Below are positions 27,769 through 55,557 of a stretch of DNA of 64,000 nt, one piece after another. The notes under the pieces were generated by a model that made no database searches, was not told the origin of the DNA, and worked only from the letters and a program-made list of their open reading frames with translations. Origin of the DNA: Acidobacteriota bacterium. Lineage in GTDB: Bacteria > Acidobacteriota > Terriglobia > Versatilivoradales > Versatilivoraceae. The DNA is taken from the NCBI GenBank assembly GCA_022821775.1, contig JAJECY010000107.1, positions 861 to 64,860 on the forward strand, in the 5' to 3' direction. How positions within the stretch are numbered: position 1 is the stretch's first letter; each line of letters starts with the position of its first letter. The translations under genes were made by a program, and so were the position numbers.

Positions 27769-27813
27769 TACCCTTCCAACAAAGCTCATATTGCCTTGGG
27801 TTCTTACCGCCAA

Positions 27814-30360
27814 ATGACCCTTTCGTTTCGCCCTTTGCTGGTTTCCTGTTTTGTGCTGGCCCTGGCGCTTCCCGCCGCCGGCGAGTCGGCTGCCGTCCCG
27901 TCCGAGTCGGAGGACCGCTTTCAGCGCGAAATCCGGCCCATCCTGAGCCGCAACTGCCTGGCCTGTCACGGCGCGGAAACCCGCCAAAGTGGACTGGCTC
28001 TGGAGAACCTAGCCGATATTCTCGAGGGAGGCGCCCTTTCCGGTCCCGCCGTGCTGGCTGGAAAGAGCAGCGCCAGTCCCCTCATCCAGTACCTCACGGG
28101 GGAAAAGCAGCCCCGGATGCCTCTGACCGGCAGTCCGCTGCCGGAAGCCGACATCGCCGCCATTTCCCGATGGATTGACGAGCTGCCGGCGGATGCCGGC
28201 GTCGGGGCCGAGGAGCCGTCGCTTTCCTGGCCCTGGACAGCCTTGGCCGAGCCTCGGCTGCCCGAGGTGCAAGACCGATCCTGGGTCAGGAACGGGGTGG
28301 ACGCCTTCATCCTGTCCAAGCTGGAAGAAAAGGAAATGGTTCCGGCGCCGCCTGCCTCCGAGCGGGCTCGCCTGCGGCGCATCTATTTCGGCCTGATCGG
28401 CCTGCCGCCCACGCCGGAGGAAGCCCAACGCTTTCTGGGGGACTCCTCCTCCGCGGCCTATGCCCGGGAGATCGAGAGCCTGCTGTCCCGTTCCGAATAC
28501 GGGGTCCGCTGGGGCCGGCACTGGCTCGACCTGGTTCGCTACGCCGACACCGGGGGAGAGTCGACCGACGATGCCCGCTCCCATCTGTGGCGATACCGGG
28601 ACTACGTGATCCGGGCTTTCAACCAGGATCGCCCCTACGATCGGTTCATCAAGGAACAGATCGCCGGCGATGCCTACCGGCACTTCGGGGACGAGGCCAA
28701 GCTGGGCACCGGGTTTCTCTACCAATGGATTCCGGTGCAGCGGGACAGGGGTCCCGAGCGGCGCCGGGATGTCCTCAATGACGTGGTGGGGACCACCGGT
28801 TCGGTCTTCCTGGGCATGACCCTGGGTTGCGCCCGCTGCCACGACCACAAGTACGACCCGATCCCCACCCGCGACTACTACCGGCTGGAGGCCTTCTTCG
28901 CCCCGCTGCTGCTCAAGGCCGCGCCCGTCCCCTTTACCGAGTTCGAATTGGCGGGCCGGCAGCCCGAGGTCTGGAAAGAGAAGGCTGCCGCCTGGGACAC
29001 CGTCCTGGAATCACGAAAGGCACTGGGAGAACGAAAGAAGGCCGAGTTCAAGGCCCGCATGAAGGCCCACCGCTCGCCGGTGATGGCCCAGGATCTCAAG
29101 GACTGGGCCCTGGAGGTCACCGACACCGATCTGAGATGGGCCATGAACGATGGAGTGCTCTTCAGCAAGGAGGAGCAGGATCTTTACCAGTTGCTGCGCA
29201 AGCAAACCACCCGCTTCGCCAACCCCAACAACCCGGGCTATTTCAAGCCCATGGCCTTCACGGCTTCCGATTCCCCCCTGCGGGACTCGGTGGGCACGTA
29301 CGTGCTGAAGGGCGGCAACTACCTCTTGAGAGGGGAAGAAGTGCAGCCGGGCTTTCTCAGCGCGGTGACGGGGCACTCCGACCCGGTGAACCTGGAGGGG
29401 CTGTCCAGCCGTCGCAAGGTGCTGGCCGAGTGGATCGCAAGTCCCGACAACCCGCTCACCGCAAGGGTGATGGTGAATCGCATCTGGCAGTACCACTTCG
29501 GCACGGGGCTGGTGCCCCAACCCAGCGACCTGGGGAAGAACGGAGGCGGGACCCGCCATCCCGAGCTCATCGACTGGCTGGCCTGGAAATTCATTCGGAG
29601 CGGGTGGAGCGTCAAGGCGATCCACCGCCTGATTCTGCAGTCGAACACCTACCAGCAGGCCCTGCGCCATCCCCGGTGGGAGGCCTACGAGGAGATCGAC
29701 AGCGCCAACCGCTACCTGTGGAAGCGCAGCCCCATTCGCCTGGAGGCCGAGGTCATTCGCGACAGCCTGCTGGCGGTCAGCGGCGAGCTGAATCCCTTGC
29801 AGGGAGGCCCGCCCTTCTTTCCCCGGATCGACCAGGAGGTCATGGATCGGGCCGGCACCTGGTGGGAGGCTTCACCGGTCGAGGACCGGAACCGGCGGAC
29901 CGCCTACATGCTGCAGTGCCGCTCCCTGCAGTCGCCCATGATCAGCGCCTTCGATGGACCCAATATACAGGAGACCTGTCCCGTGCGGGGAGTGACCACG
30001 GTGACTCCCCAGGTGTTTGCCCTCTTCAACAGCGACTTCTCCCATCAACAGAGCCGGGCCATGGCCCGGCGCATCGTCAGAGAGGTGGGGGCCGATCCGG
30101 AGCGGCAGATCGAGCGGGCCTTCCAACTGGCCCTGCAGCGGCCGCCCTCCCCCTCGGAAAAGCAGAAATGCCTGTCTTTCCTGGGAGGAAGCCGGGACCT
30201 GCCCGGCGAGAGCCGCGAGTTGACCCTGAAGGCCATCTCCTTTTCGGGTGGCGCCGGGGTGGCGCCGCAGGCGGCGACTCGGCAAGGATCCCGGAAGTAC
30301 TCGCTGGCCGGCCTCTGCCTGGTGCTGCTCAACATGAACGAGTTCGTGTTCCTGGAATAG
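27814..30360 (+). CDS. PSCyt-DUF1549-DUF1553 protein (planctomycete-type cytochrome c domain fused to DUF1549/DUF1553)
   Basis: Signal peptide. Heme-binding CLACH near the N-terminus. Characteristic DUF1549 and DUF1553 regions. The ORF-track start at 27796 is a TTG; ATG at 27814 is preferred. Confidence 0.85.
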   Translation: MTLSFRPLLVSCFVLALALPAAGESAAVPSESEDRFQREIRPILSRNCLACHGAETRQSGLALENLADILEGGALSGPAVLAGKSSASPLIQYLTGEKQPRMPLTGSPLPEADIAAISRWIDELPADAGVGAEEPSLSWPWTALAEPRLPEVQDRSWVRNGVDAFILSKLEEKEMVPAPPASERARLRRIYFGLIGLPPTPEEAQRFLGDSSSAAYAREIESLLSRSEYGVRWGRHWLDLVRYADTGGESTDDARSHLWRYRDYVIRAFNQDRPYDRFIKEQIAGDAYRHFGDEAKLGTGFLYQWIPVQRDRGPERRRDVLNDVVGTTGSVFLGMTLGCARCHDHKYDPIPTRDYYRLEAFFAPLLLKAAPVPFTEFELAGRQPEVWKEKAAAWDTVLESRKALGERKKAEFKARMKAHRSPVMAQDLKDWALEVTDTDLRWAMNDGVLFSKEEQDLYQLLRKQTTRFANPNNPGYFKPMAFTASDSPLRDSVGTYVLKGGNYLLRGEEVQPGFLSAVTGHSDPVNLEGLSSRRKVLAEWIASPDNPLTARVMVNRIWQYHFGTGLVPQPSDLGKNGGGTRHPELIDWLAWKFIRSGWSVKAIHRLILQSNTYQQALRHPRWEAYEEIDSANRYLWKRSPIRLEAEVIRDSLLAVSGELNPLQGGPPFFPRIDQEVMDRAGTWWEASPVEDRNRRTAYMLQCRSLQSPMISAFDGPNIQETCPVRGVTTVTPQVFALFNSDFSHQQSRAMARRIVREVGADPERQIERAFQLALQRPPSPSEKQKCLSFLGGSRDLPGESRELTLKAISFSGGAGVAPQAATRQGSRKYSLAGLCLVLLNMNEFVFLE

Positions 30361-30395
30361 GGCCAAGGACAGCCGTATCCAACAAGGAGTCCCCC

Positions 30396-31853
30396 ATGCC
30401 AAAACCTGAATTCAGCTTCTGCGGGCAGGTCGAGCCCGGCCCCGACCCTCGCCTGGGCGGATTGGGGCGCAGGGACTTCCTGTTCCGGTTCGGCCGCGGG
30501 CTCGGAAGCCTGGCCCTGTCCTCGCTGCTCTTCCAGGACACGCTTCGCGGCTCCCGCCCCCGGCTGGAGGATCCCCTTCTGCCCAAGGCTCCCCATTTTG
30601 AGAGCAAGGCCAAGTCCTGCATTTTCCTCTTCATGGAAGGCGCTCCCAGCCAGATGGACACCTTCGATCCCAAGCCCGCACTGGACAAGCACCACGGGAC
30701 CCCGGTCACCCGGATCTATGGCAGCATGGAAAAACGGATCTACGTGGGCAGCCCATTCAAGTTCGCCAGGCACGGGCAGTGCGGCATGGAGGTTTCGGAG
30801 ATCTTTCCCCACCTGTCGACCTGCGTGGACGACATCGCGGTGGTCCGGTCGCTGCACACCGATTCCCACAACCATCCGGCCGGGTGCTTTCTGATGAACA
30901 CCGGGGTCTCCATTCCGGGAAGTCCATCGGTGGGCTCCTGGCTGATCTACGGCCTGGGCAGCGAGAACCAGAACCTGCCTTCCTTCGTGGTGTTGCCGGA
31001 CCGGCGGCGCGGCATATCGGGAGGGGCGGTCAACTACTCCAACGCCTATCTGCCGGCGGCCTGTCACGGCACCATGCTCAACCCCGACGGCGTCCCCATC
31101 GTGGATCTGCAGCCGCCCGCGGGGACGGGGCGGGAGGAACAGGAGGCCAGCGTCAAGCTTCTGAATGAGCTGAACGAGCCCTACCTGGAGTCGGACCCCT
31201 CCAACAGCGGACTGCTGACCCGCATGAAGAATTACGAGCTGGCCTTCCGCATGCAGTTCGCCGTCCCGGGGGCCCTGGATATCGACAGCGAGTCGGAGAA
31301 GACCAAGGAGCTCTACGGGCTCAACGACAGGATCACCGAGCCCATGGCGCGCAAGTGCCTGATGGCCCGGCGCCTGGTGGAGCGCGGGGTGCGCTACGTG
31401 CAGGTCTACTGCAGCGGCTGGGACTCCCACGAGAATATTGCCGCCGAGCATCGCAGACGCGGCTATGAGACCGACCGGCCGGTGGCCGCCCTCCTCAAGG
31501 ACCTGAAGCAGCGGGGCCTGCTGGACCAGACCCTGCTGGTGTGGGGTGGCGAGTTCGGGCGCACGGCCGACAACTCCATGTCCTTCTTCCGTTCCAACCC
31601 CGGCCGTGACCACAACAAGGAAGCCATGGTGATGTGGTTCGCCGGCGGGGGGATCAAGGGAGGCACGGTGGTCGGCAATACCGACGAACTGGGCATCAAG
31701 GCCGCCGAGAACGTCTACCACCTGCACGACCTGCACGCCACCATCCTTCGCCTGATGGGTCTGGACGACATGCGCCTGACCTACTACCACGCGGGCCGCC
31801 TCAAGCGGCTCACCGACCTGGGCGGCCGGCCCATCAAGGAAGTCCTCGCCTGA
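30396..31853 (+). CDS. DUF1501-family protein (sulfatase-like fold, Tat signal)
   Basis: AAGGAG 7 nt upstream. Twin-arginine signal RRDFLFRFGRGLGSLA. Invariably partnered with the DUF1549/DUF1553 gene. Confidence 0.85.
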   Translation: MPKPEFSFCGQVEPGPDPRLGGLGRRDFLFRFGRGLGSLALSSLLFQDTLRGSRPRLEDPLLPKAPHFESKAKSCIFLFMEGAPSQMDTFDPKPALDKHHGTPVTRIYGSMEKRIYVGSPFKFARHGQCGMEVSEIFPHLSTCVDDIAVVRSLHTDSHNHPAGCFLMNTGVSIPGSPSVGSWLIYGLGSENQNLPSFVVLPDRRRGISGGAVNYSNAYLPAACHGTMLNPDGVPIVDLQPPAGTGREEQEASVKLLNELNEPYLESDPSNSGLLTRMKNYELAFRMQFAVPGALDIDSESEKTKELYGLNDRITEPMARKCLMARRLVERGVRYVQVYCSGWDSHENIAAEHRRRGYETDRPVAALLKDLKQRGLLDQTLLVWGGEFGRTADNSMSFFRSNPGRDHNKEAMVMWFAGGGIKGGTVVGNTDELGIKAAENVYHLHDLHATILRLMGLDDMRLTYYHAGRLKRLTDLGGRPIKEVLA

Positions 31854-32535: not shown

Positions 32536-32652
32536 CTCGGGCTGCAAACGACTCACCCCGCCTGCAAGCCCGAGGGACGCCATCCCCCAAGGCTTTCTCG
32601 GCCTCTCTTGCGACGGTCACAGAGCCCAAGTCGAGCTCCCGGCGACTGCCGG

Positions 32653-33906
32653 CTAGAAATTGTAGACAAAGCTGAACGAAAAGAAGCTGTCGCGACGCGT
32701 CTGGTGGAGGATGTCGGATTCGTCCACGCGGGGAAAGGCGATCGATTCCACGCTGAGCGACCACCGATCCGTAATGCGCCGGTTGAATTCCAGGCTCACG
32801 ACCTGCGAGGAGCGGGTCGCGTCGAACATGATGCCGGCCAGCAACTCCGTCCCCTGGACGTCGTTGGGCGCCCACCGCGTGGCCACGAAGACGTCGTTGT
32901 CGAAGAAATTGGTTGCGTTGCCCGCCCGCCCGTCGTAGTTCCACTCGCCCAGAAGACTGATGTCGTGGTCCGATCCTCCCACCGTGTAGAAGGTGTATTC
33001 AAACCCGGAGACCATCGCTCCGTAGTTCTGCTTCACCCCCCGAAGGTTGCGCGCGCCTGAACGCTGAATGGTTTCGAGCTTGAGCAGCCAGGCGCCGAGC
33101 GTGAGCTGCGCGTCCAGGCCCAACTGGCGGATCTGCTCGTAGTAGGGCCGCAGAACCGGAACGCCCCGTGAGCTCAGCTCCGGTTGGAGAAAGGGTTCGC
33201 GGCTGGTGCCGTCAAAGAGGCTGGCGCCGATGTCCAGGGGGCCGAAACTGTGGCTGTAGCGGGCTGCGACATCGAAGTGCCACTGCTTGGCGCGGCTCTC
33301 GTAGAGAGGGTTGTCCTTGTCGACGTTCAGCAAGTAGCGCAGGCGGCCGCCGGGTCCCGGAAACGTGCGGGCGCGGTGGTAGGGCATGCCGAAAACCTCG
33401 ACCACGCCCCAATCTGCGGACCAGGTGAGATGGGCCATGGGCTGGCCCAGCTTTTCCTCTTCGTCGGGGTGTTCGATCAGATCGGTCTGGTTGACGATGT
33501 CGACCAGGTGGCGCGATTCCGCCACCCCCCAGAACACCCGGTCGACACCGAGGCGCAACTCCCATTCACCGCTGTCCCTCTGGCCGAACAACAGCAGATA
33601 GGCCTCGCGCAGGTCGAAATGGGTCCGGCGAGGGTCGGCGCTGTCGTAGCGGAAAAAGGGGGTCAGGGTAAGGCTGCGGCCGCGGGTGTCTTCCAGGTAG
33701 AATTCCGGCTCCGCCACCACCCCGCTGGCGTGCCAGCTCTGCTCCGGAAAGGCCCCGGACCAGGGATGCCAGCGGCTCTCCAGACGGACGTTTCCGGAAA
33801 AATCGAAGTCAATGGGCGGAGCCGAAAACCCTGGAGCCACCCCGAACAAGGCCACCCAAATCGAAACGAGAACGATGTGGATAGGGAGCCTGCGCCACCT
33901 CGTCAA
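32653..33906 (-). CDS. predicted outer-membrane beta-barrel protein (porin-like; C-terminal ...FVYNF)
   Basis: TTG start overlaps the upstream stop as TTGA. Signal peptide-like N-terminus. Alternating amphipathic beta-strand pattern, aromatic girdle and C-terminal Phe. Last gene of a three-gene operon. Confidence 0.6.
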   Translation of the reverse strand: MTRWRRLPIHIVLVSIWVALFGVAPGFSAPPIDFDFSGNVRLESRWHPWSGAFPEQSWHASGVVAEPEFYLEDTRGRSLTLTPFFRYDSADPRRTHFDLREAYLLLFGQRDSGEWELRLGVDRVFWGVAESRHLVDIVNQTDLIEHPDEEEKLGQPMAHLTWSADWGVVEVFGMPYHRARTFPGPGGRLRYLLNVDKDNPLYESRAKQWHFDVAARYSHSFGPLDIGASLFDGTSREPFLQPELSSRGVPVLRPYYEQIRQLGLDAQLTLGAWLLKLETIQRSGARNLRGVKQNYGAMVSGFEYTFYTVGGSDHDISLLGEWNYDGRAGNATNFFDNDVFVATRWAPNDVQGTELLAGIMFDATRSSQVVSLEFNRRITDRWSLSVESIAFPRVDESDILHQTRRDSFFSFSFVYNF

Positions 33907-34727
33907 CGGATTCGTCTCAGCCCTGTTCGTGTGAAGTCGTTCTCGTTCAGATTGTTCCGGAATTGAAAATCCGTCCACGTCAGAGTCGTGCTCTTGCCGG
34001 TGATGTGATTGACCATGGTCATCTTGCCGGCATACCAGTAGCGCTCCAGATACCGGCGGTAGTCCGCAACCGAAAGCGTCTTCAGGTGGGCGTTCTTGCG
34101 ATCGTAGTAGTCCACCTTCCAGACGCGCAACTCGTCCCGGTCCTGCCAGACCACCTGGCGGCTGTAGCCGGAGCGCGGGTTCGCCGGGATGCGTTCCGAG
34201 ACGGTGCAGGTCAGATCCCCGCACGGCTCCTCCCTCAGGTAACGATAGGTAAACTTCTCCACCTCCGGGGTGCCCATGTCTTCGTAGGCGAACTCACTGC
34301 CCATGAAGGAGCCGGACTGGTTCGACGAGCTGATTCGCTTGACCCGTCGCAGCGCCGGCAGATAGAGCCACTGTTCGTCATCTTTCTCCCTGTGGGAGTG
34401 GATCAGCAAAGCCGTTCCCTTCACGTCGCGCGGCTCGTCGAACACGAACAGGTTCTTGTCTCCCTCTCCCGGCACCTCCAGAACCTGCAAACGCAACTGC
34501 CGCCGGCTCTCCTGTCCGCCCCGGTTGCGCAGCACCATGGTCTGACGCGCGCTGAAATCACCGAAGCCGTCGCCGCGCGCGCGCGCGTCCACGGCGATCT
34601 TAAGGCCTCGGGCCTCCGGGTCCGCCTCCTGGCTCAAAGCCGGAGTCCGAGCGGACAAAAACGCCCAAACGGCCAGACAACTCATGCAATACAGGTACGG
34701 CCGAAGGTGGGAATAGGGATGTTTCAT
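33903..34727 (-). CDS. LolA-like periplasmic protein (outer-membrane lipoprotein-sorting protein family)
   Basis: ATG overlaps the MMPL stop as ATGA. Signal peptide MKHPYSHLRPYLYCMSCLAVWAFLSA. Conserved WLYLPALRRVKRIS...FMGSEFAYEDM block typical of the LolA-like family found next to MMPL exporters. Confidence 0.65.
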   Translation of the reverse strand: MKHPYSHLRPYLYCMSCLAVWAFLSARTPALSQEADPEARGLKIAVDARARGDGFGDFSARQTMVLRNRGGQESRRQLRLQVLEVPGEGDKNLFVFDEPRDVKGTALLIHSHREKDDEQWLYLPALRRVKRISSSNQSGSFMGSEFAYEDMGTPEVEKFTYRYLREEPCGDLTCTVSERIPANPRSGYSRQVVWQDRDELRVWKVDYYDRKNAHLKTLSVADYRRYLERYWYAGKMTMVNHITGKSTTLTWTDFQFRNNLNENDFTRTGLRRIR

Positions 34728-37006
34728 GATTTGTCTCGATCGATGGCCATCAGCAGGGGTGGGAGCAGCAGAAAATCGGCCAGAAGCGCAAAGCCCAGCG
34801 TGATGGCGACCAGCAGGCCCAGCACGGAGCTGACTTGAAATCCGGATGAAGCGAACACCAGAAAGCTGGCCGACAACACCGCGGTCGTGGTCCACAAGGC
34901 ATGACCGACGGTCCGGAAGGTGGAGCGCACGGACTCGGACGGGGAGGCTCCCCCGCGTCGGGCTTCCAGGTACTTGCTCATGAAATGAATGGTATCGTCC
35001 ACCACGATGCCGAAGGCCACGGCGCAGACGACCGAGGCGGAGAGACCTACCTGACCGACCAGGTAGCCCCACAAGCCGAAGCTCATGGCGGCCGGAATGA
35101 AGTTGGGGAACAGGCTGACCAGGCCGAAGCGCAGGCTCTTGAACGTCACGACCAGGATCAACGAAATCAGGGCCATGGCCGCGATGGTGCTGCGCAGCAT
35201 GCTCTCGATGTTTCTCTGAGCCAAGTGGGCGAATACCATGGTGACGCCCGATGCTTCTCCGGTCAACCCGGGTGCGTTGGTCCGTACCCACTCCTGTGCG
35301 CGCTTGTCCAGCTCGCGCAGACCCCGGGCGGACGCGTTGGCCACAACGGTCATTCGGGTGGCGGACTTGGCGACGTCGATGCGGTCGTTCAAGTCATTGC
35401 CGAGCGGCAGCGACAGCTCGTACAGCAGCAGATTCTGGGCCGCCAGCGCCGGGTCCTCCGGAATCCGATAGTAGGCGGGGGCGTCGCCGTGCATGTTCTT
35501 GTTCAGGCGTTTCATGACGTCGGGAAACGACTGAACGAAGTTCACTTCCGGCTGCTCCCGGTACCATTTGGCAAAAGCATCGGCAGTGCGCAGGTAGGCC
35601 GGATCGGTGATACCGCCTTCGTGCCCCGAATCCAGCGAGTACTCGAGCGTATCCAGTCCGGTCAGGTTCTCGATGACGAAGTCGGTATCGTTGCGGAAAC
35701 TGTAACGCTGATCGAAATAGCGTGTCCAGTTGTCGCTCAACTCGACCCGCGGAACACCGGCGATCAGCACCACTGTCACCATGGAGACCACCACCAGCAG
35801 AACCTTGCGCCGTTCCACCACCAATGCGCCCAAGCGGTCGAAGAAGCCGGGACGGTTGGATGGAGTCGGTAGCGGGTGCAGCGGAAGAATCGATAGCACG
35901 GCCGGCAGAAACGTCATCGAGTAGACGAAAATGCACACCAGGCCAAAGGCCACCATATTGCCCAAGACATGGAAGGGAGGCGAATCCGAGGCATTCAGGC
36001 TCAGAAATCCGATGGTGGTCGTCAGCGCGGCCAGAAAGACCGGGTAGGCATTGATCCGAAGCGACTTGCGTATTGCGTCGTCACGGTTCTGTCCCGACCG
36101 GAGGCCCGCCAGAGTGCTGGTGACGATGTGGACCGCGTGGGCGACGGCGATGGCCATGACGATGATCGGCACGCCGGCGCTGGCGGGGCTGAAGACCTGG
36201 CCGGTCCAGCCGGCGAAACCCATGGTGCCGACGATGACGAGCACCACCATGCTCACGATGGCCAGCGTCGCCAAAACCGACTTCAACAGCAAAGCCGAGC
36301 TCACGATGATGATCAGGAACACGATCGGCACCAGGGATTGCAAGTCGTTTGCGGTCGTCTCGGCGAGCACTCGATTCATGACCACGTCGCCGGTCAGGTA
36401 ATAGGAGATATCGGGATGGCGTTCCCGGGCCGCGGTGAGGAGGGCGTTGATGTGATCGGTGATTTCGATCACCGCCAGGTCCGAATTCTCCGGCAGCAGG
36501 AAGTTGATGGTCAGCCCGCCCACGCGTCCGTCGGTAGAGACCAGGCGTCCGGCGACGCCGACCTCCTCCAGCGCGATCGACTCGACGCGCGCCAGGTCGG
36601 CATCGCTCAATGAGCCGGCGTCCTCGACGAGCGGTCCGACCGCCAGGTCGTCCTCGCCGAATGCCTCGCTGTGGGTATAGTTGGTCAGCGAATCCACCCG
36701 GGTGGAATGGGGCGTGCGCCACCCGGCTTCGGTCAATTCCTCGATGGCGCCCAAAACCTCGCGTGTGAACACCGAGCCGTCCCGAGGCGCCACGGCGATC
36801 AGGGCCGTGTTGGTAGAGGCGTAGGTGTTTCCCAACGCATCGAAGGCCGCCAGTTGCGGGTTGTCCTCGCTGAACAGGATGCGGTAGTCGTTGGTGACGG
36901 TGATGTTGGGGGCGCCGGAGGCAAGGACCAGAATGGCGGCCAAAGCCACTCCGACGACCAGCCACCGGCGGCGGAGAATGACGTTGATGTATCGATCCAA
37001 TCGCAT
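34724..37006 (-). CDS. RND-superfamily exporter, MMPL family (two sterol-sensing-like 6-TM bundles)
   Basis: About 760 aa with two large periplasmic loops and 12 TM segments. MMPL-type motifs (GDVV..., GIVVDDTIHF). Start at M24 of the track ORF. Confidence 0.85.
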   Translation of the reverse strand: MRLDRYINVILRRRWLVVGVALAAILVLASGAPNITVTNDYRILFSEDNPQLAAFDALGNTYASTNTALIAVAPRDGSVFTREVLGAIEELTEAGWRTPHSTRVDSLTNYTHSEAFGEDDLAVGPLVEDAGSLSDADLARVESIALEEVGVAGRLVSTDGRVGGLTINFLLPENSDLAVIEITDHINALLTAARERHPDISYYLTGDVVMNRVLAETTANDLQSLVPIVFLIIIVSSALLLKSVLATLAIVSMVVLVIVGTMGFAGWTGQVFSPASAGVPIIVMAIAVAHAVHIVTSTLAGLRSGQNRDDAIRKSLRINAYPVFLAALTTTIGFLSLNASDSPPFHVLGNMVAFGLVCIFVYSMTFLPAVLSILPLHPLPTPSNRPGFFDRLGALVVERRKVLLVVVSMVTVVLIAGVPRVELSDNWTRYFDQRYSFRNDTDFVIENLTGLDTLEYSLDSGHEGGITDPAYLRTADAFAKWYREQPEVNFVQSFPDVMKRLNKNMHGDAPAYYRIPEDPALAAQNLLLYELSLPLGNDLNDRIDVAKSATRMTVVANASARGLRELDKRAQEWVRTNAPGLTGEASGVTMVFAHLAQRNIESMLRSTIAAMALISLILVVTFKSLRFGLVSLFPNFIPAAMSFGLWGYLVGQVGLSASVVCAVAFGIVVDDTIHFMSKYLEARRGGASPSESVRSTFRTVGHALWTTTAVLSASFLVFASSGFQVSSVLGLLVAITLGFALLADFLLLPPLLMAIDRDKS

Positions 37007-37235
37007 GACGGCAACCTGAATCGGATCCTTGCGAGTGATTCTCAACCTGTCCGTCTGCAAGCTGGACAGAGTCACAACCTGCCCATCTTATACCGACGAC
37101 CGATTAAATGGACTACCGAAACGGAGAGAATCGCAAATTTTTGGGCGTGGGCGTGATCGGGTGGGCCGTTCAATCGGTCTCAGGATCCTCACGGGGCGTC
37201 CGAAGCGGTTCCCGGGGACCTGTGAGTCCTTTGGC

Positions 37236-37997
37236 CTAGCGCAGCATGTCCCTGAGCAGGGGGGTCTGCCGTTTGCTCACGGTGTACTCCAGGCCGTTGG
37301 TCAGGGTCAAGAGCCAGCGTTGGCTGCTGAGAGGACTTATCCTGCGGACCTTGTCGAGGTTGACCAGAACGCCCCGGTGGATTCGCTGAAACTGGGTGTC
37401 GTTGAAGCGCTCGTCGATGGCCTGGAGGGTCTGAGTGGCCATGTAGCTCTTGTCGCGGGTCCGGATCCAGACGATTTCCCGGTCGGCCTGGAAGGCATAG
37501 ACCTCATCCGGATCCAGCAGATGGTAGTCCTCACCCTTCCTGGCCACGATCTTCACCAGCCCGCGCTTTTCCCCGGCCGTGGCCGCCCCCAGCGTTTGAG
37601 CTACCCGCTCCACGGCTTCCTGCCGGTTGCCCAGGGTCGCCTGGGCCCGCTCAACGGCCGTCTGCAGCCGATCCGGGCTGAACGGTTTCAGCAGATAGTC
37701 GACCGCGCCGACCTCGAAGGCGTTGAGGGCATGCTCACTGTAGGCGGTCACAAAGATGATGGAAGGCAGCGGTCCCCGGAGTTGCCGCAGCACCTGGAAG
37801 CCGTCCATCAAGGGCATCTGGATGTCCAGCAGAACCAGGTCCGGCCGGAGCTTTTCGATTTGCTGGAGCGCCTGCTGGCCGTTATCGGCTTCGCCGACGA
37901 CCGAGATGTCATCCATCTCGGCAAGATCCTCCAGCAGCACCCGCCGGGAAACGGGTTCGTCGTCCACCACCAGCGTTCGAAGGGGTTCCCTGGACAT
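37236..37997 (-). CDS. LytTR-family response regulator (receiver + LytTR DNA-binding domain)
   Basis: Receiver (LVVDDEP..., LDIQMP) plus C-terminal LytTR domain (VYAFQADREIVWIRTRDKSYMATQTLQAIDERF...FQRIHRGVLVNLDKV). Coordinates may be off by 1 nt. Confidence 0.8.
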   Translation of the reverse strand: MSREPLRTLVVDDEPVSRRVLLEDLAEMDDISVVGEADNGQQALQQIEKLRPDLVLLDIQMPLMDGFQVLRQLRGPLPSIIFVTAYSEHALNAFEVGAVDYLLKPFSPDRLQTAVERAQATLGNRQEAVERVAQTLGAATAGEKRGLVKIVARKGEDYHLLDPDEVYAFQADREIVWIRTRDKSYMATQTLQAIDERFNDTQFQRIHRGVLVNLDKVRRISPLSSQRWLLTLTNGLEYTVSKRQTPLLRDMLR

Positions 37998-38046
37998 GAT
38001 TGCCTGGTCATATAAGCCGATTCGGCGTTCAAGGCCGAAGGGGATT

Positions 38047-38079
38047 CCACCGGCGGGAAGTTCGTCCGCACCGGCGGCC
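38047..38079. promoter_or_regulatory. candidate LytTR-type operator: imperfect direct repeats (CACCGGCGG) with 21-bp period
   Basis: CCACCGGCGGG-11 nt-CACCGGCGGCC, 50-80 bp upstream of the LytTR regulator start in the divergent kinase/regulator gap. GC-rich, so chance occurrence is possible. Confidence 0.25.
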
Positions 38080-38314
38080 CCATCCGACCCGCGGGCGGAA
38101 TGCGTCGGGGGCCGGGGTGGAGCCGCGATGCGGCAGCCGCCATGGCCCCGCGAAGCCGCCCGCCGGCCCCACCGGTTGGCGCGGCAGCCGTTGCGCCACG
38201 GGCGATCCGGGAGCGTCCCGGCCTTGCTCTCAGAATCCCTATTATGCATCAGCGGCGCCAACCCAATGGAAATTGACCGTTCAGATCGTATACTGATGAG
38301 AGTAGGCGCGATCC

Positions 38315-40207
38315 ATGGACAACCCACCCACCGTTCACCTTCCGCTGCTGGTCAATACCCTGGGGCACATCTTTGGGCTGGCGGCCTTCAGCGGTTTTCT
38401 CTATTTGCTGTGGCGCAGCCGCCGACGGTCTCTCCTGGGGGACATCCGGCTGCCGGGCGGGGCCGCCCTGCTGGCCCTGTTATGGAACGCCGGCTCGCTG
38501 GGAGTGCTGGCGGCGGCCGATTCACCCAGCCTGGCGCGACGCGTGATGGTGGCGGGAAGCTTTGCCGCCTTGAGCCTGCTGCCGAGCGTGCTGCTGCACG
38601 TCTCGCTGGGCTCCTGGCGATCCCTGCTCTGCTGGATCGGCTACGGAGTGGGATTGCTGGCCTGCGGCATCCATCTGGCTGAAATCTTCGGCGCCGAGGT
38701 CACTTCCCATCAGTTCGGGCTGCAGCTCATCACCTTCGGGTTCGGAGCCCTGGCCGTGCTGGCGGCCCTCGTCCTCTGGAGGGACCAGCAGCAACGCAAG
38801 GGGGCGGGGATGCGCATGCTGGGCGCCATGGCCCTGTTCCTGTTCGCCGTTTCCTTCGTCCACTTCGGCGAGGCGCACGGAACCGAAGCCTGGGCCTACG
38901 AGCTCTTGGTGCACCATGCCGGCATCCCGCTGGCGCTGGTGGTGCTGCTGCAGGAATACCGCTTTCTGCTGCTGGACGTCTTCATTCGTTTCCTGGGGAA
39001 TGCGCTGCTGGCGGTGGTTTTCGCGGTGGGCCTGATCGGGCTGTTGAGCCGGCTGGAGCTCGATTTGGAGCTCGATCCCGCCTCCCCGCAAGGAGGATTT
39101 TCACTGGCTGTGACCATCACCGGGGTGGGCCTGGCCCTGCTTGGTTTTTCCGGGTCTCGCGGCTACCTTCAGAGATGGGTGGAGCGGCGTGTCTTCCGCA
39201 GGGGCAACCTGAGGGCGGCGCTGGGGCGGCTCCAGGCCCTGTCCGGCAGCGCCGGGAGCGAAGAGGAGTTCCTGCGACAGGCGGCCGAAGAAACGGCTTC
39301 CTTCGCCAAGGCCCGCCGGGTGGAGCTCCTGGAGGAAAGTGCTGTTGCCGAGGCGATTGTCGGGGAGGGCCTGCGCCCCCAGATTCTGGATCGAGGCCAG
39401 AGTTCGGAACTTGGCCACAGGCGCTGGGCCGAGGTGGCGGTGCCGCTACGGTTCGCCGAGGGAGACCGGAAGGCGCTGCTCTTGAGCGCTCGGCTGGCCG
39501 GCAGGCGCTATCTCAGTGAAGACCTGGAGGATCTGAACCGCCTGGCGACCGAGGTGGTGGCGCAAGTGGCTCGCCGGAGGCGCGCCGAGCTGCAGGGCCT
39601 GGCCACCCGGGCGGAGTTGCAGGCCCTGCGGGCGCAGATCAACCCCCACTTTCTCTTCAACTCTCTCAATGCACTCTACGGGCTCATTCCGCGAGCGGCG
39701 GCCGAGGCCCGGCGCACCGTTGTCAACCTGGCCGAGATCTTTCGCTACCTGCTGCAAGGCAATCGCCAGCAGGTACCATTGGAAGAGGAACTCCGAACCG
39801 TCCAGGCCTACCTGGAGGTGGAGCGCTTGCGGCTGGGGTCCCGCCTAGCCACCCGGATCGACGTCAGCCGTGAAGCCCTCCGGGTGGAAATCCCGGCCCT
39901 GTCGATCCAGCCCCTGGTCGAGAATGCCGTCAAGCACGGCATTAGCAGGCAGGTGGAGGGGGGAAGCATCCGCCTGGACGCTGCCGTGGAGGACGGTGTC
40001 CTCGAGGTTGCGGTCTCCGACGACGGCCCGGGATTTCAGTCGTCCGTACTTCGGGAGGATGGACAGGGCCTGGAGAATGTTCGGCGCCGGCTGCGGCTCT
40101 GCTACGGCGAACAGGGCACACTCCAGGTGCAATCCGATCCCGGGCGCACCAGGGTCGGCTATCGTGTGCCGCTGGAGAACAACCCCGCTGCCGTTCCAAC
40201 CAAGTAA
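38315..40207 (+). CDS. LytS/YehU-family sensor histidine kinase (multi-TM sensor + His_kinase + HATPase)
   Basis: Six or more N-terminal TM segments. QINPHFLFNSLN His-kinase motif. C-terminal ATPase G-boxes (DDGPGF...). Transcribed divergently from the LytTR regulator. Confidence 0.8.
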   Translation: MDNPPTVHLPLLVNTLGHIFGLAAFSGFLYLLWRSRRRSLLGDIRLPGGAALLALLWNAGSLGVLAAADSPSLARRVMVAGSFAALSLLPSVLLHVSLGSWRSLLCWIGYGVGLLACGIHLAEIFGAEVTSHQFGLQLITFGFGALAVLAALVLWRDQQQRKGAGMRMLGAMALFLFAVSFVHFGEAHGTEAWAYELLVHHAGIPLALVVLLQEYRFLLLDVFIRFLGNALLAVVFAVGLIGLLSRLELDLELDPASPQGGFSLAVTITGVGLALLGFSGSRGYLQRWVERRVFRRGNLRAALGRLQALSGSAGSEEEFLRQAAEETASFAKARRVELLEESAVAEAIVGEGLRPQILDRGQSSELGHRRWAEVAVPLRFAEGDRKALLLSARLAGRRYLSEDLEDLNRLATEVVAQVARRRRAELQGLATRAELQALRAQINPHFLFNSLNALYGLIPRAAAEARRTVVNLAEIFRYLLQGNRQQVPLEEELRTVQAYLEVERLRLGSRLATRIDVSREALRVEIPALSIQPLVENAVKHGISRQVEGGSIRLDAAVEDGVLEVAVSDDGPGFQSSVLREDGQGLENVRRRLRLCYGEQGTLQVQSDPGRTRVGYRVPLENNPAAVPTK

Positions 40208-41438: not shown

Positions 41439-41498
41439 CGACAGGCGACCGAACGTCTCAATCGGCACAGCCGGGAAGTGGCCGGAAGGAACTCGACC

Positions 41499-44400
41499 AT
41501 GCGGACAGCGTTCAGAACCAGCCTCACGATTCTTGGGGTCCTGTGCCTGATCGCAGCCTCTGCCGGCGTGGCCATTTCGGAGACTTCCCCCGGTGAGGGT
41601 GGGGAAAAGGCGCGTTTGACCCGGGAACAGGCCTCCGGCATGACCCGAGCCGCCGCCGCCCGGATTTCCGAGGAGAGCCGCGCAGGCGTCCGGGAACCGG
41701 CCGTTGAGGTCGCGCCTCGATCTTCCGCCACGTCGTCCGTCTCCGAACAGTCCGTGCAGGACTCCTCTCCCTCTCCTCCCACCGGCTATACGTTCGTTTC
41801 CTACCACGGCGAGATGCCGCGGGAGCGAATCGAGGGCGAGGTTGGCACCGGGGGCGTGCGCCCCCGGCTGGATCTGGACTGGCTGGGGACGGAGACCTCG
41901 ATCGAGATGCTGTCCGACCAGGCCGCCGCGGCCGGACGGGACTGGTCCTTCGGCTGGATCCGTCTCGCCGGGGAGGCCACGGCCAACGACCTGGCGCAGG
42001 CGCTCCAGGGCACGGGCGCCCGCATCCTCGGTTCCTCGGGAGTGCTCGTTCGCGCCAGCCTTCCGGGCGACGAGGCCCTTCTGCACGCGATCGCGGCGTT
42101 GCCTGAGGTCGATGGGCTGGGCGCCCTGCCCCCTGAGAGGAAACTCGCCCAAGCACTGGTGAACCCATCTCCCGGCGCCTCCACCCAGGAAATGACGCCG
42201 GTGTTCATCACCCTGATGACCGACGATCCCGACGCCCGCTGGCGGCAGGCGCTGCAGGACCTGGGGGCGGAGGTGGGACGCTTCGACCCGGACATCCGGG
42301 TCTATGCGGCCAACCTGCCCCGGGCTCGGCTGGAAGCGATTGCCGAGGCCGATTTCGTGCTGGCCATCCAACCCATCGGAATCGTCGAATCCGTGCTGGA
42401 CACGGCTGTCCCCGCCATGGGCGCCGATGCCCTGCGCCAATACGACGGGGCTCCCGGCCTATTCTCGGGTATCGGCGGCGCCTCGGTCCCCATCGGAGTC
42501 ATGGATACCGGCCTCAATATCAACCATCCCGACATCGCGTCCAACCGGGAAAGCGTGTGCGGGGCCAACTTCTCGCTGGACCTCGGCTTTTTCGGGTTCG
42601 GCGGGACCAGCGAGTCCGAGGACCTGTGGATCGATGCAGGCCTGCACGGAACCGCCGTAACCGGAACCATCCTCGGAAACGGCGCCATCGAACCCCGTTT
42701 CGCCGGCATGGCCCCTTCGGTTCGCCACGTCCGTTTCGCCAAGGTCCTGAACAGCTCCGGGTTCGGATTCGGGGACGGGGTCAGTCGAGCCATGGATTTC
42801 CTGGCCCGCCCCACCGAGTGCGCCGAAGCGGCCAGTCCGTCGCTCCCGGTCAAACCCCTGATCGTCAATATGAGCCTGGGTGATTCATCCCGGGAATTCG
42901 AGGGAAGGGATGTCGATGAGCGCAAGCTCGACTCCATCGTCTGGAGTCACCGCCAACTGTATGTCGTCGCGCAATCGAACGAAGGGATCAACGGCTTTTC
43001 CGACTTTGCCAGCGCCAAGAACTCGCTGGCGGTCGGCGCCGTGCTGGACAGCGGGGACATCGCCGCCTTCAGCAGCCACGGGCCCACCTCCGACGGACGC
43101 CTGGCGCCCCAGGTGGTCGCCACCGGAGTCGGCATCCATTCGGCCCGGGGCGGGGGCAGCCGCGGGGGCCATGTCCGCTTCAACGGCACCAGTTTCTCGT
43201 CGCCCGCCGTGGCCGGAGTGGCCGCCCTGCTGCTGGATGCGGTCCCTGCCTTCCGCGAGCAGCCCGCGCTCACCCGGGCTCGGCTGATGGCCGGCGCCAT
43301 CCGGCCGGATCCCTGGTTGGAGGGCGCCGGGGCATTCCCCGCGACCAACAGCGACGGGCCCGGCAGGCTGCATGCCCAGTACGGACTGGGCAAGGTGTCG
43401 GCCCGCACCAGCGTGCTCAACCGGAATCGGGCCGACGGTTGGGCCGGCGGGGCCGCGGTCTCCGAGCTGCGGGACGGCGAGTACGCCTATCGGGACATCC
43501 GGGTGCCGGAAGGCGCCAGCCGCCTGGACCTGGTGCTGGCCTGGGACGAGCCGCCCACCGACACCATCGGCAGCGCCGTTTTGAACGATCTCGACCTGTG
43601 GCTCGACCGGGACGGCGATTGCGGCGCCGTCGCCTGCGGAGAGCATGTTTCGTCCTCCCGCGTGGACAACGTGGAGTGGATCATCCTCAGCAACCCGCAA
43701 CCGGGAGTCTACCGGGCGAAGGTGGCGGCCCACCGCGTCTACACCGCTCCGCCGCGGGCGGCGCTGGCCTGGACGGTGATCCGGGGCGCCTCCACTCCGA
43801 ACCTGGAGATCGAGGCCGACGGCAGCTCCCTCGAAGGCGGCCGGGAACAGGAACTGACGCTGACCCTGGGCACGGACGCCTACGTGGCGGCCGGAACCCG
43901 GCTCCACATCGACTGCCGCGACGCCGGGGGACCATCCGGCTGCAACCAGGTGCGGATCCACACCGTGGAGGTGTCCCGCCAGGATGGGCTGACGGTGGAT
44001 CTATCGTCCGAACTCGAGGTTCCCGAACCCGACCTCCCGGCATTCCCGGGTCAGGAGGTGATCGAGGCCGCACCCGTCCCCCTGGGGTCCTCGATCCCGC
44101 TCGGTGAAGTCTCGGTCGGGGAGGCCCGGGGCGTCAAGTTGAGTGTTTCCTACGCCGGCGAGCCGGACACGGCGCGCCTCTACTTTACGGCGAGCGCCTG
44201 GAATGCGCGGGCGGCATCGGTGTCGGTCGGCCTGGGCGCGGGCAGCCGGCCCCCATCCGGCGTTACCGGCAGGCCCCCCAACGACGACTTCCTGTCGGCG
44301 ATCCCGATCGAGGGCGGGGAGGGAGCGCTGGCTCTGGATCTGCTGCCGGCCACCCCGGAGCCGGGAGAGCCTCTGTTCACCTCCCGGCGGGGACGCCCGG

Positions 44401-48424: not shown

Positions 48425-48462
48425 GCGCTGGTGACGATTCTCAACAGGACAAGCGCACCCAC
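48425..48462 (+). repeat. right copy of the 38-bp direct repeat
   Basis: Encodes, on the minus strand, the last residues (...VRLSC*) and stop of the BNR gene. Confidence 0.6.
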
Positions 48463-49565
48463 TTCACGTCCATCCGTTCCGTGAGCCCTGCGTAATAGAC
48501 GACCAGCACCTCCCCGTTGGACAGGACGGTGGCGTAGGGCAGGCCGTAGCTCCAGTCGCTCATGACGTCCAGGGTTTCGGCCATGTTCACGCCGGCGGAG
48601 GGGCGGCCTCGCAGGACGGCGGCGTGGTCGTAGAGGACGATCTCGGTTTCGGCCGGGAAAGCGGCGTCAATGGCGGGGGCCAGGCGGGCCCGGATGGATT
48701 GGGTGCCGAACCGGTCCACCCAGGCCAGCACCGTTCTGCCGTCGGGCAGGATGGCGGGGGTGGCCGCCTGGTCGGGAAAGCCCAGGTCCTCGGGGTCGGT
48801 CCAGCTTTGCCCCTCGTCCCGGCTGATGCGCCGCCGGATGTTGAGGTAGGTTCCCTCCCTGCTGTCGAAATACCAGGTGAAGGTGACGATACGCCCGTCG
48901 GGGGCCACTCCCGCCCGCTGGTCCCAGTTGAACATCCTGCCGGTCGGGTCCTGGCTCACCGTGTGGGGGGTGCTCCAGGACCTGCCTTCATCTTCCGAAT
49001 AGAGATAGACCACCCGCTGATACCACTTGGAAGCGTCCAGGTAGGGCTTGTTGGTCTCCACGCTCAATGCCAGCCGGCCGCCGGCCAGCTCCATCAGGGG
49101 GCTGGTCACGCTGGGCGGCCCCAGCTCGGCCGGGGTGGGGATGACCCGCCAGGGGCTCCAGCTCCGGCCCCCGTCGTCCGACTCCGACCAGAGCACCGTC
49201 ATGGGCAGACAGCCTTCGGTTTCGGCATGAAAGATCTTGGAGCCGGGGAAGGATTCCCGGTCCACCCACATGGAAATCAGCACCAGGCGTCCGGACGAGA
49301 GCTGGGTGGGGTAGGCTACCCACAGCGAGCCCTTCTTTCCCCCGATCCGGGGAGTCTCCAGAATCGTCGGTTCCGTCCAGCTCCGCCCCTGGTCTTCCGA
49401 CCAGCAGAGCTCCAGGGTGGCCCGGTCCGAGTCCTTGTTGGGACCCGCCTTGTAGGTGGCCAGCACCCGTCCGTCCTTCAGTCCCAACACCATGGGAAAG
49501 GTCGCGACGGCCCGGTCGCTTCCCACCTCCCCCTGGTGCAGGGTACCACTGGCGACGATCTTCAT
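48441..49565 (-). CDS. BNR/Asp-box repeat protein (sialidase/glycosyl-hydrolase-like beta-propeller)
   Basis: GGAGG Shine-Dalgarno 6 nt before ATG (MKIVASG...). Four Asp-boxes: SEDQGRSW, SDDGGRSW, SEDEGRSW, SRDEGQSW. Start may be off by 1 nt. Confidence 0.8.
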   Translation of the reverse strand: MKIVASGTLHQGEVGSDRAVATFPMVLGLKDGRVLATYKAGPNKDSDRATLELCWSEDQGRSWTEPTILETPRIGGKKGSLWVAYPTQLSSGRLVLISMWVDRESFPGSKIFHAETEGCLPMTVLWSESDDGGRSWSPWRVIPTPAELGPPSVTSPLMELAGGRLALSVETNKPYLDASKWYQRVVYLYSEDEGRSWSTPHTVSQDPTGRMFNWDQRAGVAPDGRIVTFTWYFDSREGTYLNIRRRISRDEGQSWTDPEDLGFPDQAATPAILPDGRTVLAWVDRFGTQSIRARLAPAIDAAFPAETEIVLYDHAAVLRGRPSAGVNMAETLDVMSDWSYGLPYATVLSNGEVLVVYYAGLTERMDVKWVRLSC

Positions 49566-49736
49566 GGCGTTCCTCCGGCGGTTTCCAGTACTCACAGTCA
49601 ATCACAAGGCTGCTAGTGTCTCAGCAAGACCCTGAAGACGCAATAGCAATCCTGAGCGGCACAATAACGTGGTGGGGAGGTGATCAATTCCCCGAAAGAG
49701 CGTCCACTTTGAGAGTGAGCTCTCAGGAAATGAGGG

Positions 49737-51978: not shown

Positions 51979-52272
51979 ATGACAGGAAAACGCCGATGGA
52001 ACGGCTATCCCGTATTGAGCCGGCCGCTGATGATTCTGGGCGTGGAACGGCGCTGGTTTCTCTTGAGCGCGACACTGGCAGTGTCGCTTTGGAATGCCGG
52101 CGACTCCCTGCTGGCAGCGATCCTTGTCCTGGCATTGCTGCTTGCCACCGGCCGGCTGGCTTGGAAACAGGATCCCAACATGCTGAGCCTGTTGCGGGAA
52201 GCCGCCCGATCCAAAGTGCGGTACGACCCCGGCAAATGGACGGAAACACCCTGGTATCTGGATCTCCGGTAG
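51979..52272 (+). CDS. virB3: type IV secretion protein VirB3/TrbD family
   Basis: About 97 aa. LSRPLMILGVERRWF VirB3 signature plus two TM segments. ATG 8 nt after the virB2 stop. Confidence 0.65.
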   Translation: MTGKRRWNGYPVLSRPLMILGVERRWFLLSATLAVSLWNAGDSLLAAILVLALLLATGRLAWKQDPNMLSLLREAARSKVRYDPGKWTETPWYLDLR

Positions 52273-52282
52273 GTCACCTCGG

Positions 52283-54703: not shown

Positions 54704-55557
54704 ACGCAACTCTACTCAGGGAAGGTCCGTTTTTCACCATCGTGTTCCTGGTTGTCTGCTGGACGTTGCTGTCAGGCAGCGCGACCGGAAGTGGCGTGCT
54801 TCGGATCAAGGAGAGGCAGGATCAAATTGTCGAGATCCGGGCCAAGGTACGACATACGACCGTGCTGGTTCTTCCGAAGACCGAGAATATCCTGGACTTC
54901 GTGGTTGGCGACTCCGACTACTGGCACCTTAGCGGGGCAGCCAACCTGGCATACCTCAAACCCATCGCCACGGGTGTGCGAACCAACGTGACGCTGGTAT
55001 GCGCCAGCGGTCGGATCTACACCTTTTTGGCGAATGAGGGTGCCGAGTCTCCGCACCTGGTGGTTCGAGTCGAACGAACCGGAGGTGGGGACGGACGCGC
55101 GGCCGAATCGGCGCACAGGCCGGCGTTCGTTTCCCGCAGCATGGTGGAGGGATACCAACACGCGGCTCGGCAAGCAAGCGAGGCCGCGCTGGCCGCCAAG
55201 AGCGATGCGGAAGCCCGGGTCAACGAGGCAAAGCAAGAGGCCTCCAAGACCATCGATCAATTCCGCTCCAACTATCCGGCTCGCTTGAAGTGGCCGTACC
55301 GTCTCGAGAAAAGGGCATTTGAACGACCGTTCCTGGTCGAAGCCCTCTGGCATGACGGTCAGTTTACCTATCTGCGATGTCGGGCGCAGGAAGCCCCGGC
55401 GCTATACGAGTTGAAGGATGGATCGCCCAGCCTGGTGTCCTTTGACCTCAGCCAGGATGGACTCTATGTGGTACGGCATGTCTTGGGCGATGGCTGGCTT
55501 GCCATAGGGAAGAATAGAGCCAAGTGGCGGTTTGTGGATGAAGGACCAAGACCCTAG
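54700..55557 (+). CDS. virB9: type IV secretion protein VirB9/TrbG (CagX) family
   Basis: GTGA overlap with the virB4 stop. Signal peptide. N-terminal ILDFVVGDSDYWHL...TNVTLVCASGRIYTF and C-terminal DGQFTYLRC...LYVVRHVL blocks match VirB9. Confidence 0.65.
   Translation: MNATLLREGPFFTIVFLVVCWTLLSGSATGSGVLRIKERQDQIVEIRAKVRHTTVLVLPKTENILDFVVGDSDYWHLSGAANLAYLKPIATGVRTNVTLVCASGRIYTFLANEGAESPHLVVRVERTGGGDGRAAESAHRPAFVSRSMVEGYQHAARQASEAALAAKSDAEARVNEAKQEASKTIDQFRSNYPARLKWPYRLEKRAFERPFLVEALWHDGQFTYLRCRAQEAPALYELKDGSPSLVSFDLSQDGLYVVRHVLGDGWLAIGKNRAKWRFVDEGPRP

Follow-up and report, generated by a model that had tools for sequence, protein, structure and literature searches.

The 64-kb stretch of an Acidobacteriota contig analysed here (JAJECY010000107.1; hereafter the window) carries a compact cassette of three overlapping genes, encoding a resistance-nodulation-division (RND) transporter of the MMPL family, a LolA-like carrier and a predicted outer-membrane β-barrel. 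The cassette recurs as a unit across phyla, and we favour an explanation in which the three proteins would act as the successive stations of an export relay for a hydrophobic molecule, with an ancestral cargo of isoprenoid type. The window is ~62% G+C and contains many spurious open reading frames (ORFs); those of the trio are all intact and are arranged as follows.

34724-37006, minus strand: RND transporter gene (760 amino acids, ATG start; orthologues are likewise 760 amino acids)
34724-34727, minus strand: ATGA stop/start overlap of the RND and LolA-like genes, read from the sequence
33903-34727, minus strand: LolA-like carrier gene (274 amino acids, ATG start)
33903-33906, minus strand: TTGA stop/start overlap of the LolA-like and barrel genes, read from the sequence
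32653-33906, minus strand: predicted outer-membrane barrel gene (417 amino acids, TTG start)

A first-pass annotation of this DNA had described three minus-strand genes overlapping by ATGA and TTGA, and both the ORF positions and the junction letters are as it claimed: the RND/LolA-like junction reads ...AAATCATGAAACAT... and the LolA-like/barrel junction reads ...ATCCGTTGACGAGG.... Against close orthologues, the ratio of non-synonymous to synonymous substitution (dN/dS) is 0.12-0.28 across all three genes and 0.12-0.13 for the RND gene (the RND gene of locus L007 was left out owing to a coordinate artefact), and all three are thus under purifying selection. Given these ratios, and since gene order and junctions recur in related loci, the trio arrangement is far beyond chance. 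The three genes would form a single translationally coupled operon.

Scanning species-representative genomes gave at least 579 loci, of which the best 80, all from metagenome-assembled genomes (MAGs), were retained and compared by tblastn with the window proteins. The retained loci include Acidobacteriota (Terriglobia, 'Ca. Versatilivorator') at 84-92% identity, and 'Ca. Versatilivorator'-type Terriglobia MAGs are likely the relatives of the window organism. Other retained lineages are Latescibacterota, Gemmatimonadota, Binatia, Alphaproteobacteria, Verrucomicrobiota, Nitrospinota and Desulfobacterota-like bacteria, making at least eight phyla overall; the SB06xx series of bins derives from a sponge metagenome data set. 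Of the 81 loci having both a LolA-like and a barrel gene, 75 have the former immediately 5' of the latter, and some 55 of 80 show the full order RND > LolA-like > barrel, the RND gene elsewhere lying mostly within 8 kb. The ATGA junction between the RND and LolA-like genes is kept in 52 related loci, and the LolA-like/barrel junction in 58 (TTGA in 48, GTGA in nine, ATGA in one). The same order across phyla bears out the earlier expectation that the trio is conserved as a unit in related genomes. Between phyla, identity is 55-73% for all three proteins, and because these values are no lower than those of the L007/L011 paralogues, which occur in one 'Ca. Versatilivorator' genome, trio distance does not track taxonomy. 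Pairwise-distance matrices computed for the three proteins are correlated (r 0.78-0.88, a level that none of 999 Mantel permutations reached), and this points to one common evolutionary history for the three genes.

Related arrangements are found in several other settings. Prevotella nigrescens has the order two ATP-binding cassette (ABC) genes > MMPL > LolA-like > DUF1302, and a Sulfitobacter plasmid has type I polyketide synthase (PKS) > MMPL > LolA-like > GalE > barrel, with a type I PKS and a glycosyltransferase gene flanking the trio. The arrangement is kept also on a Pseudoalteromonas plasmid, a Tara Oceans contig and a TetR-linked contig (L091). One relative has the carrier and barrel only, beside a squalene/phytoene synthase gene, and one relative whose barrel carries an AMIN domain stands alone. 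In relatives the cassette is also multi-copy and unstable (L014, L015, L050, L052, L058, L059, L062, L019 and L030): one chromosome has two copies, 99.5% identical, of a 17.2 kb trio-bearing segment (L014/L015), the carrier and barrel pair alone (2.8 kb) is duplicated at 99.93% identity (L050/L052), and several loci have RND fragments only beside the carrier and barrel genes, with a full RND gene elsewhere.

Turning to the proteins themselves, the assignment of the first gene to the MMPL-family RND transporters holds. Its product matches Pfam MMPL (PF03176) in two stretches, one per half, at 119.1 bits against a threshold of 20.5 (2.7e-34), with weak Pfam sterol-sensing/Patched matches as well, and has ~12 hydrophobic segments and two large periplasmic loops. 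The top NCBIfam match is TIGR00921 (HAE3) at 156.8 bits, under the 351.9-bit cut-off, and by this curated standard the protein is HAE3-like only. It scores 95.6 bits against 751.85 (TIGR03480) and 43.7 against 1100 (NF052374) for the HpnN models, and falls far under the NCBIfam cut-offs of the BstA and MmpL3 models; the nearest proteins in a PDB sequence search are MmpL5, MmpL4 and HpnN, all weak. Among 68 RND orthologues, including those of Prevotella, Sulfitobacter and Pseudoalteromonas, H293, N635, D670, D671 and D744 are invariant, and these residues fall in or beside hydrophobic, predicted membrane segments. By analogy with other RND proteins, the invariant His, Asn and Asp residues suggest an intact proton relay, and the pump looks active.

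The middle protein had been described as LolA-like and, more specifically, as LolA_3-like. The description stands and the family label does not, as the protein matches PF17131 instead, over profile positions 3-184 of 184 (203.8 bits against 30, E 2.4e-60; the searched Pfam copy names the family LolA_like, precomputed annotations name it TP_0789-like). The LolA fold that had been proposed is that of its close homologues of solved structure, namely PDB 3BK5 from Vibrio parahaemolyticus (E 1.5e-78, residues 39-272), 9TP6 (LolA3 of P. gingivalis, E 5.9e-33) and 4Z48. A partial DUF1329 match at 42 bits, pairing residues 91-136 with positions 142-190 of the 368-position profile, suggests that the carrier is related to DUF1329 via the LolA superfamily, at half the size. 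Its leader is of the signal-peptidase-I type, ending ...TPALS/QEA, and has no lipobox, which predicts that the carrier is soluble and periplasmic.

The barrel protein itself gave no Pfam (even at E<=10), NCBIfam or PDB sequence match, so its identity is drawn from relatives and from structure. At its N-terminus is a Sec-type signal peptide with the basic n-region TRWRR, and the TTG start is needed because this n-region would otherwise be left out; its C-terminus reads ...FVYNF, with Y415 and F417 at least 90% conserved in the family. An AlphaFold2 model built from 36 sequences (pLDDT 74, pTM 0.72) has ~18-20 antiparallel strands, and its top Foldseek matches are all outer-membrane barrels (AlgE, porins), the best TM-scores of 0.58-0.62 being to the 18-stranded alginate exporter AlgE. 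The same Foldseek matches were reported in a 2026 paper for a bona fide DUF1302 protein. With its signal peptide, closed antiparallel barrel and aromatic β-signal, the third protein is predicted to be an outer-membrane β-barrel, in agreement with the first-pass annotation, which had called it a β-barrel with a C-terminal Phe; a soluble or periplasmic protein would have spoken against that annotation. As to its family, DUF1302 (PF06980) is matched at E<=0.01 by 30 of the 36 aligned barrel relatives, and hhalign of the barrel family profile against a Prevotella protein named DUF1302 by both Pfam and PGAP gives 94% probability (E 1.4e-7), the two having the motif LREAYL...LR.G...V.WGV in common. 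We consequently regard the protein as a short, divergent and remote DUF1302 homologue rather than a member of the Pfam family. The earlier reading of the trio as pump, carrier and barrel is supported by these assignments.

The barrel family is large: a word-index search retrieved more than 4,500 proteins, and an exhaustive search, with clustering at 50% identity, gave at least 2295 clusters, including 948 with E<1e-30. Some relatives have N-terminal AMIN or OmpA peptidoglycan-associated domains, in keeping with an outer-membrane protein whose N-terminus lies in the periplasm; the idea that long family members might be LolA-barrel fusions was rejected, their N-terminal extensions being AMIN/OmpA and not LolA. 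Conservation in the barrel is highest at residues 124-152 (VFWGVAESRHLVDIVNQTDLIEHP...), in the loop joining strands 5 and 6, which the model would make extracellular loop 3 when counted from a periplasmic N-terminus. Loop 3 constricts classical porins, and the loop at 124-152 may serve as a plug or gate. Separately, the rare TTG start inside the carrier stop codon, conserved across phyla (48 related loci), may fix a lower ratio of barrel to carrier translation.

To consider what the cassette may carry, all ORFs of the 80 loci were clustered in a census of neighbours, 68 loci having full flanks. A frequent fourth partner is a ~390-residue PF09995 protein, present in 52 of these 68 loci; in 46 loci its gene directly precedes the RND gene, in the same orientation, and it has no signal peptide, i.e. 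it is cytoplasmic. PF09995 includes MpaB and the rubber oxygenase Lcp, haem-dependent enzymes which cleave isoprenoid chains. In addition, 25 of the 68 loci encode IspH, DXS or squalene/phytoene synthase (the last often as a tandem pair) within 8 kb, a rate far above expectation for single-copy genes. Because genes for an MpaB/Lcp-type oxygenase, for the methylerythritol phosphate (MEP) pathway and for squalene/phytoene synthase adjoin the trio, the ancestral cargo of the window's clade was probably an isoprenoid-derived lipid. Near the trio, the closest relatives (L001:15463-20019 and L003:12823-17243) also have a cytochrome P450 fused to a GPP34-like domain and a Rieske/KshA-like oxygenase, and the same stretches encode an RND membrane-fusion protein, tandem squalene/phytoene synthases and IspH, a gene set reminiscent of triterpenoid or sterol-modifying clusters. 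A further conserved protein of ~365 residues without a Pfam match (cluster c8) occurs in 7-9 loci (among them L001:5573-6670, L003:3675-4772 and L010:2035-3132). In relatives of the window's clade its gene precedes that for the RND protein, or that for the oxygenase where this intervenes; the corresponding position in the window is held by a LytTR regulator of similar length and unrelated sequence.

We propose that a proton-driven MMPL/HAE3-type RND protein would take a hydrophobic or amphiphilic molecule out of the inner membrane and pass it to the soluble LolA-fold carrier, which would shield it in the periplasm. The carrier would then dock on the ~18-stranded DUF1302-like barrel, which would put the cargo into the outer membrane or release it beyond. 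Such a relay would work without a membrane-fusion protein or TolC, and the cassette would be a portable, cargo-independent module placed beside different cargo-making or cargo-handling genes in different genomes. Taken as a whole, isoprenoid-type ancestral cargo included, we hold this to be the probable explanation, though with reservations. What the analysis establishes is the gene structure, the families and folds of the three proteins, their conservation together and the statistics of the neighbourhood. The hand-over steps and the cargo we infer, as we do the outward direction, for which the grounds are RND energetics together with biosynthetic and export neighbours (isoprenoid-precursor genes, PKS, ABC exporters). 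Members of the RND superfamily are exporters driven by protons, and none is known to be an established importer.

Several points weigh against this explanation and need to be kept in view. The RND protein scores under the curated HAE3 and HpnN cut-offs; to our knowledge a ligand is known for no PF17131 protein; and we are aware of no experiments on the compact trio. Confidence in the barrel model is moderate, with the two most conserved loops unmodelled, and the barrel interior is apparently rich in conserved charged residues and not obviously suited to a lipid. The window copy is without oxygenase or isoprenoid neighbours, so its cargo could differ. Finally, the need for DUF1302/DUF1329 proteins in growth on Tween 20, and the presence of such genes in catabolic clusters, fit uptake equally.

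This last point brings in the reverse direction, in which the trio would be an uptake route for hydrophobic nutrients from host or environment (terpenoids, sterols, fatty esters), the barrel serving as entry channel, the LolA-like protein ferrying inward and the RND protein inserting the compound into the inner membrane or having an indirect role. We consider this unlikely, but growth phenotypes and genomic settings of a catabolic kind keep it a serious rival: DUF1302/DUF1329 mutants cannot grow on Tween 20 or butyl stearate, and the two families occur in phenanthrene, p-cresol, steroid and monoterpene catabolic clusters. The chain-cleaving MpaB/Lcp enzymes might be read in the same way, the role of Lcp being catabolic, and some loci have catabolic-looking neighbours (CoA-transferases and aldehyde dehydrogenase in L086, beta-oxidation-like genes in L090). 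However, apart from the lack of any established RND importer, the functions encoded nearby (IspH, DXS, squalene/phytoene synthase, PKS, ABC exporters) belong to biosynthesis or export and not to catabolism, and deletion of ameABCD, a related four-gene cassette considered below, acted as an efflux defect. The same cassette gives monoterpene tolerance, which would suit a trio acting as an inducible pump against exogenous toxic hydrophobics such as solvents, terpenes or host defence molecules, the role that has been proposed for AmeABCD. Regulation could be read likewise, as the P. gingivalis and P. intermedia homologues are under TetR control and rise 13-220-fold with iron limitation and nitric oxide (NO) stress, a TetR gene lies upstream in L091, and the window copy adjoins a two-component system. 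Nevertheless, the linkage in the window's clade to a cytoplasmic oxygenase and isoprenoid-precursor genes argues for a self-made cargo, and a soluble carrier would be odd for bulk detoxification; we therefore think a tolerance pump unlikely, though it too stays a rival.

Considerably more remote is an alternative Lol-type pathway sorting lipoproteins to the outer membrane, which we regard as highly improbable. The middle protein does have the LolA/LolB fold, goes by the database name 'outer membrane lipoprotein-sorting protein' and is given Gene Ontology terms for lipoprotein localisation by PGAP, by inference. Against this, no gene for a LolCDE-type ABC transporter or for LolB is found in the cassette, whether in the window or among conserved neighbours. 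P. gingivalis LolA3, which belongs to the same family, has neither the arginine of LolA nor the leucine of LolB and hardly binds LolB (PMC13103446), and deletion of lolA3 in F. johnsoniae leaves lipoprotein-dependent gliding and the type IX secretion system intact (PMC11885536).

If the export relay is pursued further, a more far-reaching version of it can be formulated, to which we would give little credence at present. The trio might be a cargo-independent lipid-delivery device swapped horizontally among co-resident uncultured bacteria of at least eight phyla, at least some of them known from the sponge metagenome series, and mostly coupled to the oxygenase gene and to extra MEP-pathway and squalene/phytoene synthase genes so as to make and bring an oxidatively cleaved isoprenoid to the cell surface. 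If true, symbionts would have a pathway for terpenoid surface lipids or signals that has not been described before, and the PF17131 and short-DUF1302 families would gain their first assigned function.

The genomic position of the window copy bears on the mobility of the cassette. Compared by blastn with relatives at 87-92% identity (L001, L002, L005), homology extends over 32648-37177 only, that is, the trio and ~170 bp upstream. In L005, a 'Ca. Versatilivorator' chromosome, a ~11 kb trio block with an MpaB/Lcp-like gene adjoining the trio interrupts segments which are contiguous in the window at ~8.65-8.76 kb. The restricted homology and the position of the L005 block together indicate that the trio has moved as a discrete module. 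Around the window trio we found no traces of relocation in the form of tRNA genes, insertion sequences, or direct or inverted flanking repeats above noise. MpaB/Lcp, IspH, SQS_PSY, DXS, P450 and c8 neighbours were sought in the window and none was present; the window copy is an ordinary member of the compact-trio variant, notable mainly for its lost oxygenase/isoprenoid context. At 8666-8751, exactly where L005 has its ~11 kb block, the window holds, once only, an intergenic element of 87 nt with a strong predicted structure (minimum free energy -39.6 kcal/mol). A 96.5% identical copy adjoins the trio cluster of another Terriglobia MAG (L003:3305-3391); the element is not a tRNA and has no Rfam match. 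The features flanking the window trio and further afield are as follows.

37007-37177, minus strand: conserved 5' flank of the trio, presumed promoter/leader (blastn homology ends at ~37177)
37236-38327, minus strand: LytTR-type response regulator (Pfam Response_reg and LytTR), directly upstream of the trio
38315-40207, plus strand: LytS-type histidine kinase (Pfam His_kinase and HATPase_c), divergent from the response regulator
27796-31853: PSCyt1/PSCyt2/PSD1 (DUF1549/DUF1553) cytochrome-domain protein, then a DUF1501 protein
41478-47285: secreted-type subtilase of 1935 amino acids (Peptidase_S8) with a lactonase-like beta-propeller near its C-terminus
48444-49601: BNR_2 repeat protein, 11 kb from the trio and the only BNR_2 protein in the window
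52187-60456: type IV secretion/conjugation genes (TraG/VirB4-like P-loop ATPase, TrbL/VirB6, VirB11-type ATPase)

Scans for promoters and terminators found no more than shuffled sequence would give, and no strong sigma-70 consensus; an Rfam search gave no matches. The LytTR/LytS neighbourhood is found beside the trio in none of 82 related loci, and the pair was accordingly rejected as part of the cassette; the LytTR response regulator is a candidate local regulator of the trio. On the other side, the break in synteny with relatives begins right behind the barrel gene. The PSCyt1/DUF1501 pair beyond it is typical of Planctomycetes and Verrucomicrobia and stands here in an acidobacterial context. 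The subtilase gene lies in the most G+C-rich part of the window (0.69), and G+C falls to 0.58-0.61 over the conjugation genes, which are probably an integrated conjugative element.

The wider interest of the cassette lies in the fact that Gram-negative transport to the outer membrane of lipids other than lipopolysaccharide, phospholipids and lipoproteins is largely unknown, and that a pump, a soluble carrier and a barrel would be a compact three-part answer to it. It is also very common, as the number of loci in species-representative genomes attests, and occurs in pathogens (Porphyromonas, Prevotella) as well as uncultured symbionts. The oxygenase/isoprenoid linkage gives a concrete, testable cargo hypothesis, and culturable carriers exist; the family is large and unexplored, even if the mechanism would not surprise specialists in envelope transport. 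In the literature searched, the compact trio is found in transcriptome tables and piecemeal as 'LolA3', and we found no description of it as a system. The earlier remark that such trios are poorly characterised is fair for the compact trio and does not extend to related four-gene cassettes, on which there is work on AmeABCD and by randomly barcoded transposon sequencing (RB-TnSeq).

Set beside known systems, the cassette resembles each of several in part. Like the Lol pathway and the LolA2-LolB2 pair of flexirubin/aryl-polyene clusters, it has a LolA-fold carrier of the kind that takes acylated or lipidic cargo to the outer membrane, and those pigment clusters encode an MMPL protein nearby. 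Unlike them, its acceptor is a predicted transmembrane barrel rather than a LolB-type lipoprotein and its carrier is of another family, PF17131; unlike the Lol pathway, its energiser is an RND protein rather than the LolCDE ABC transporter. With RND-membrane-fusion protein-outer-membrane factor pumps of the AcrAB-TolC type it would have in common that it spans the envelope and is powered by an RND protein, whereas a soluble carrier and a porin-like barrel replace their continuous duct. As the first-pass annotation had maintained, membrane-fusion protein (HlyD/BSH) and TolC/OEP genes are absent, none adjoining the window trio and none occurring among the conserved cassette genes or neighbours; the ACR_tran and OEP genes of L001 form a unit separate from the trio. 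HpnN, an HAE3 protein, is of the same broad RND branch and carries an isoprenoid lipid outward between the two membranes. In hpn clusters it lies near squalene-synthase, ispH and dxs genes, neighbours comparable to those of the trio, but it has been described without a dedicated periplasmic carrier or outer-membrane barrel. The cassette is not HpnN, an MmpL/MmpS system, an RND-membrane-fusion protein-outer-membrane factor pump or the Lol pathway.

The resemblance is closer to two further groups. The Bacteroidota versions, namely P. gingivalis PG1178-81 with LolA3 (PGN0947, PDB 9TP6) and the TetR-ABC-ABC-MMPL-LolA-like-DUF1302 operons of Prevotella, have a carrier of the same family, PF17131, and the Prevotella operons also have the order MMPL > PF17131 > DUF1302-like barrel; in PG1178-81, PG1178 is a candidate barrel only. 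They differ in having two added ABC-exporter genes and a TetR gene, in their response to iron and NO stress, and in barrels only ~27% identical to that of the window. The other group comprises AmeABCD and its relatives. In Castellaniella defragrans, AmeABCD consists of a DUF1302 protein, a DUF1329 protein, a BNR protein and an HAE3 RND protein, which are co-expressed, and cells deleted for ameABCD tolerate monoterpenes less well and accumulate more Nile Red (PMC6394551). Clusters of DUF1302, DUF1329, BNR (COG4447) and RND (COG1033) genes are cofit in RB-TnSeq data from Shewanella, Kangiella and Pseudomonas. AlphaFold-Multimer predicts a DUF1302-DUF1329 complex with ipTM 0.84 (PMC13499233), and other predictions have the DUF1329 protein binding the BNR protein and the RND protein (PMC10866462). 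In these systems, as in the window, an HAE3-type RND protein, a LolA-superfamily protein and a DUF1302-type barrel are encoded together without a membrane-fusion protein or TolC, and hydrophobic compounds are, or in the window would be, handled. The window cassette would work along the same lines but has three genes rather than four and is without the Ycf48-like BNR propeller, no Ycf48/COG4447 BNR gene occurring among the conserved neighbours of the 80 loci; the BNR_2 gene at 48.4 kb was considered as an AmeC equivalent and rejected, since it is of another Pfam family, distant, and not conserved near the trio. Its carrier has 274 residues and belongs to PF17131, compared with ~450 residues and DUF1329 in the four-gene systems, and its barrel has 417 residues and falls outside the DUF1302 Pfam model, compared with ~600 residues. 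The cassette is a compact relative of the four-gene DUF1302/DUF1329/BNR/RND systems, standing outside that set.

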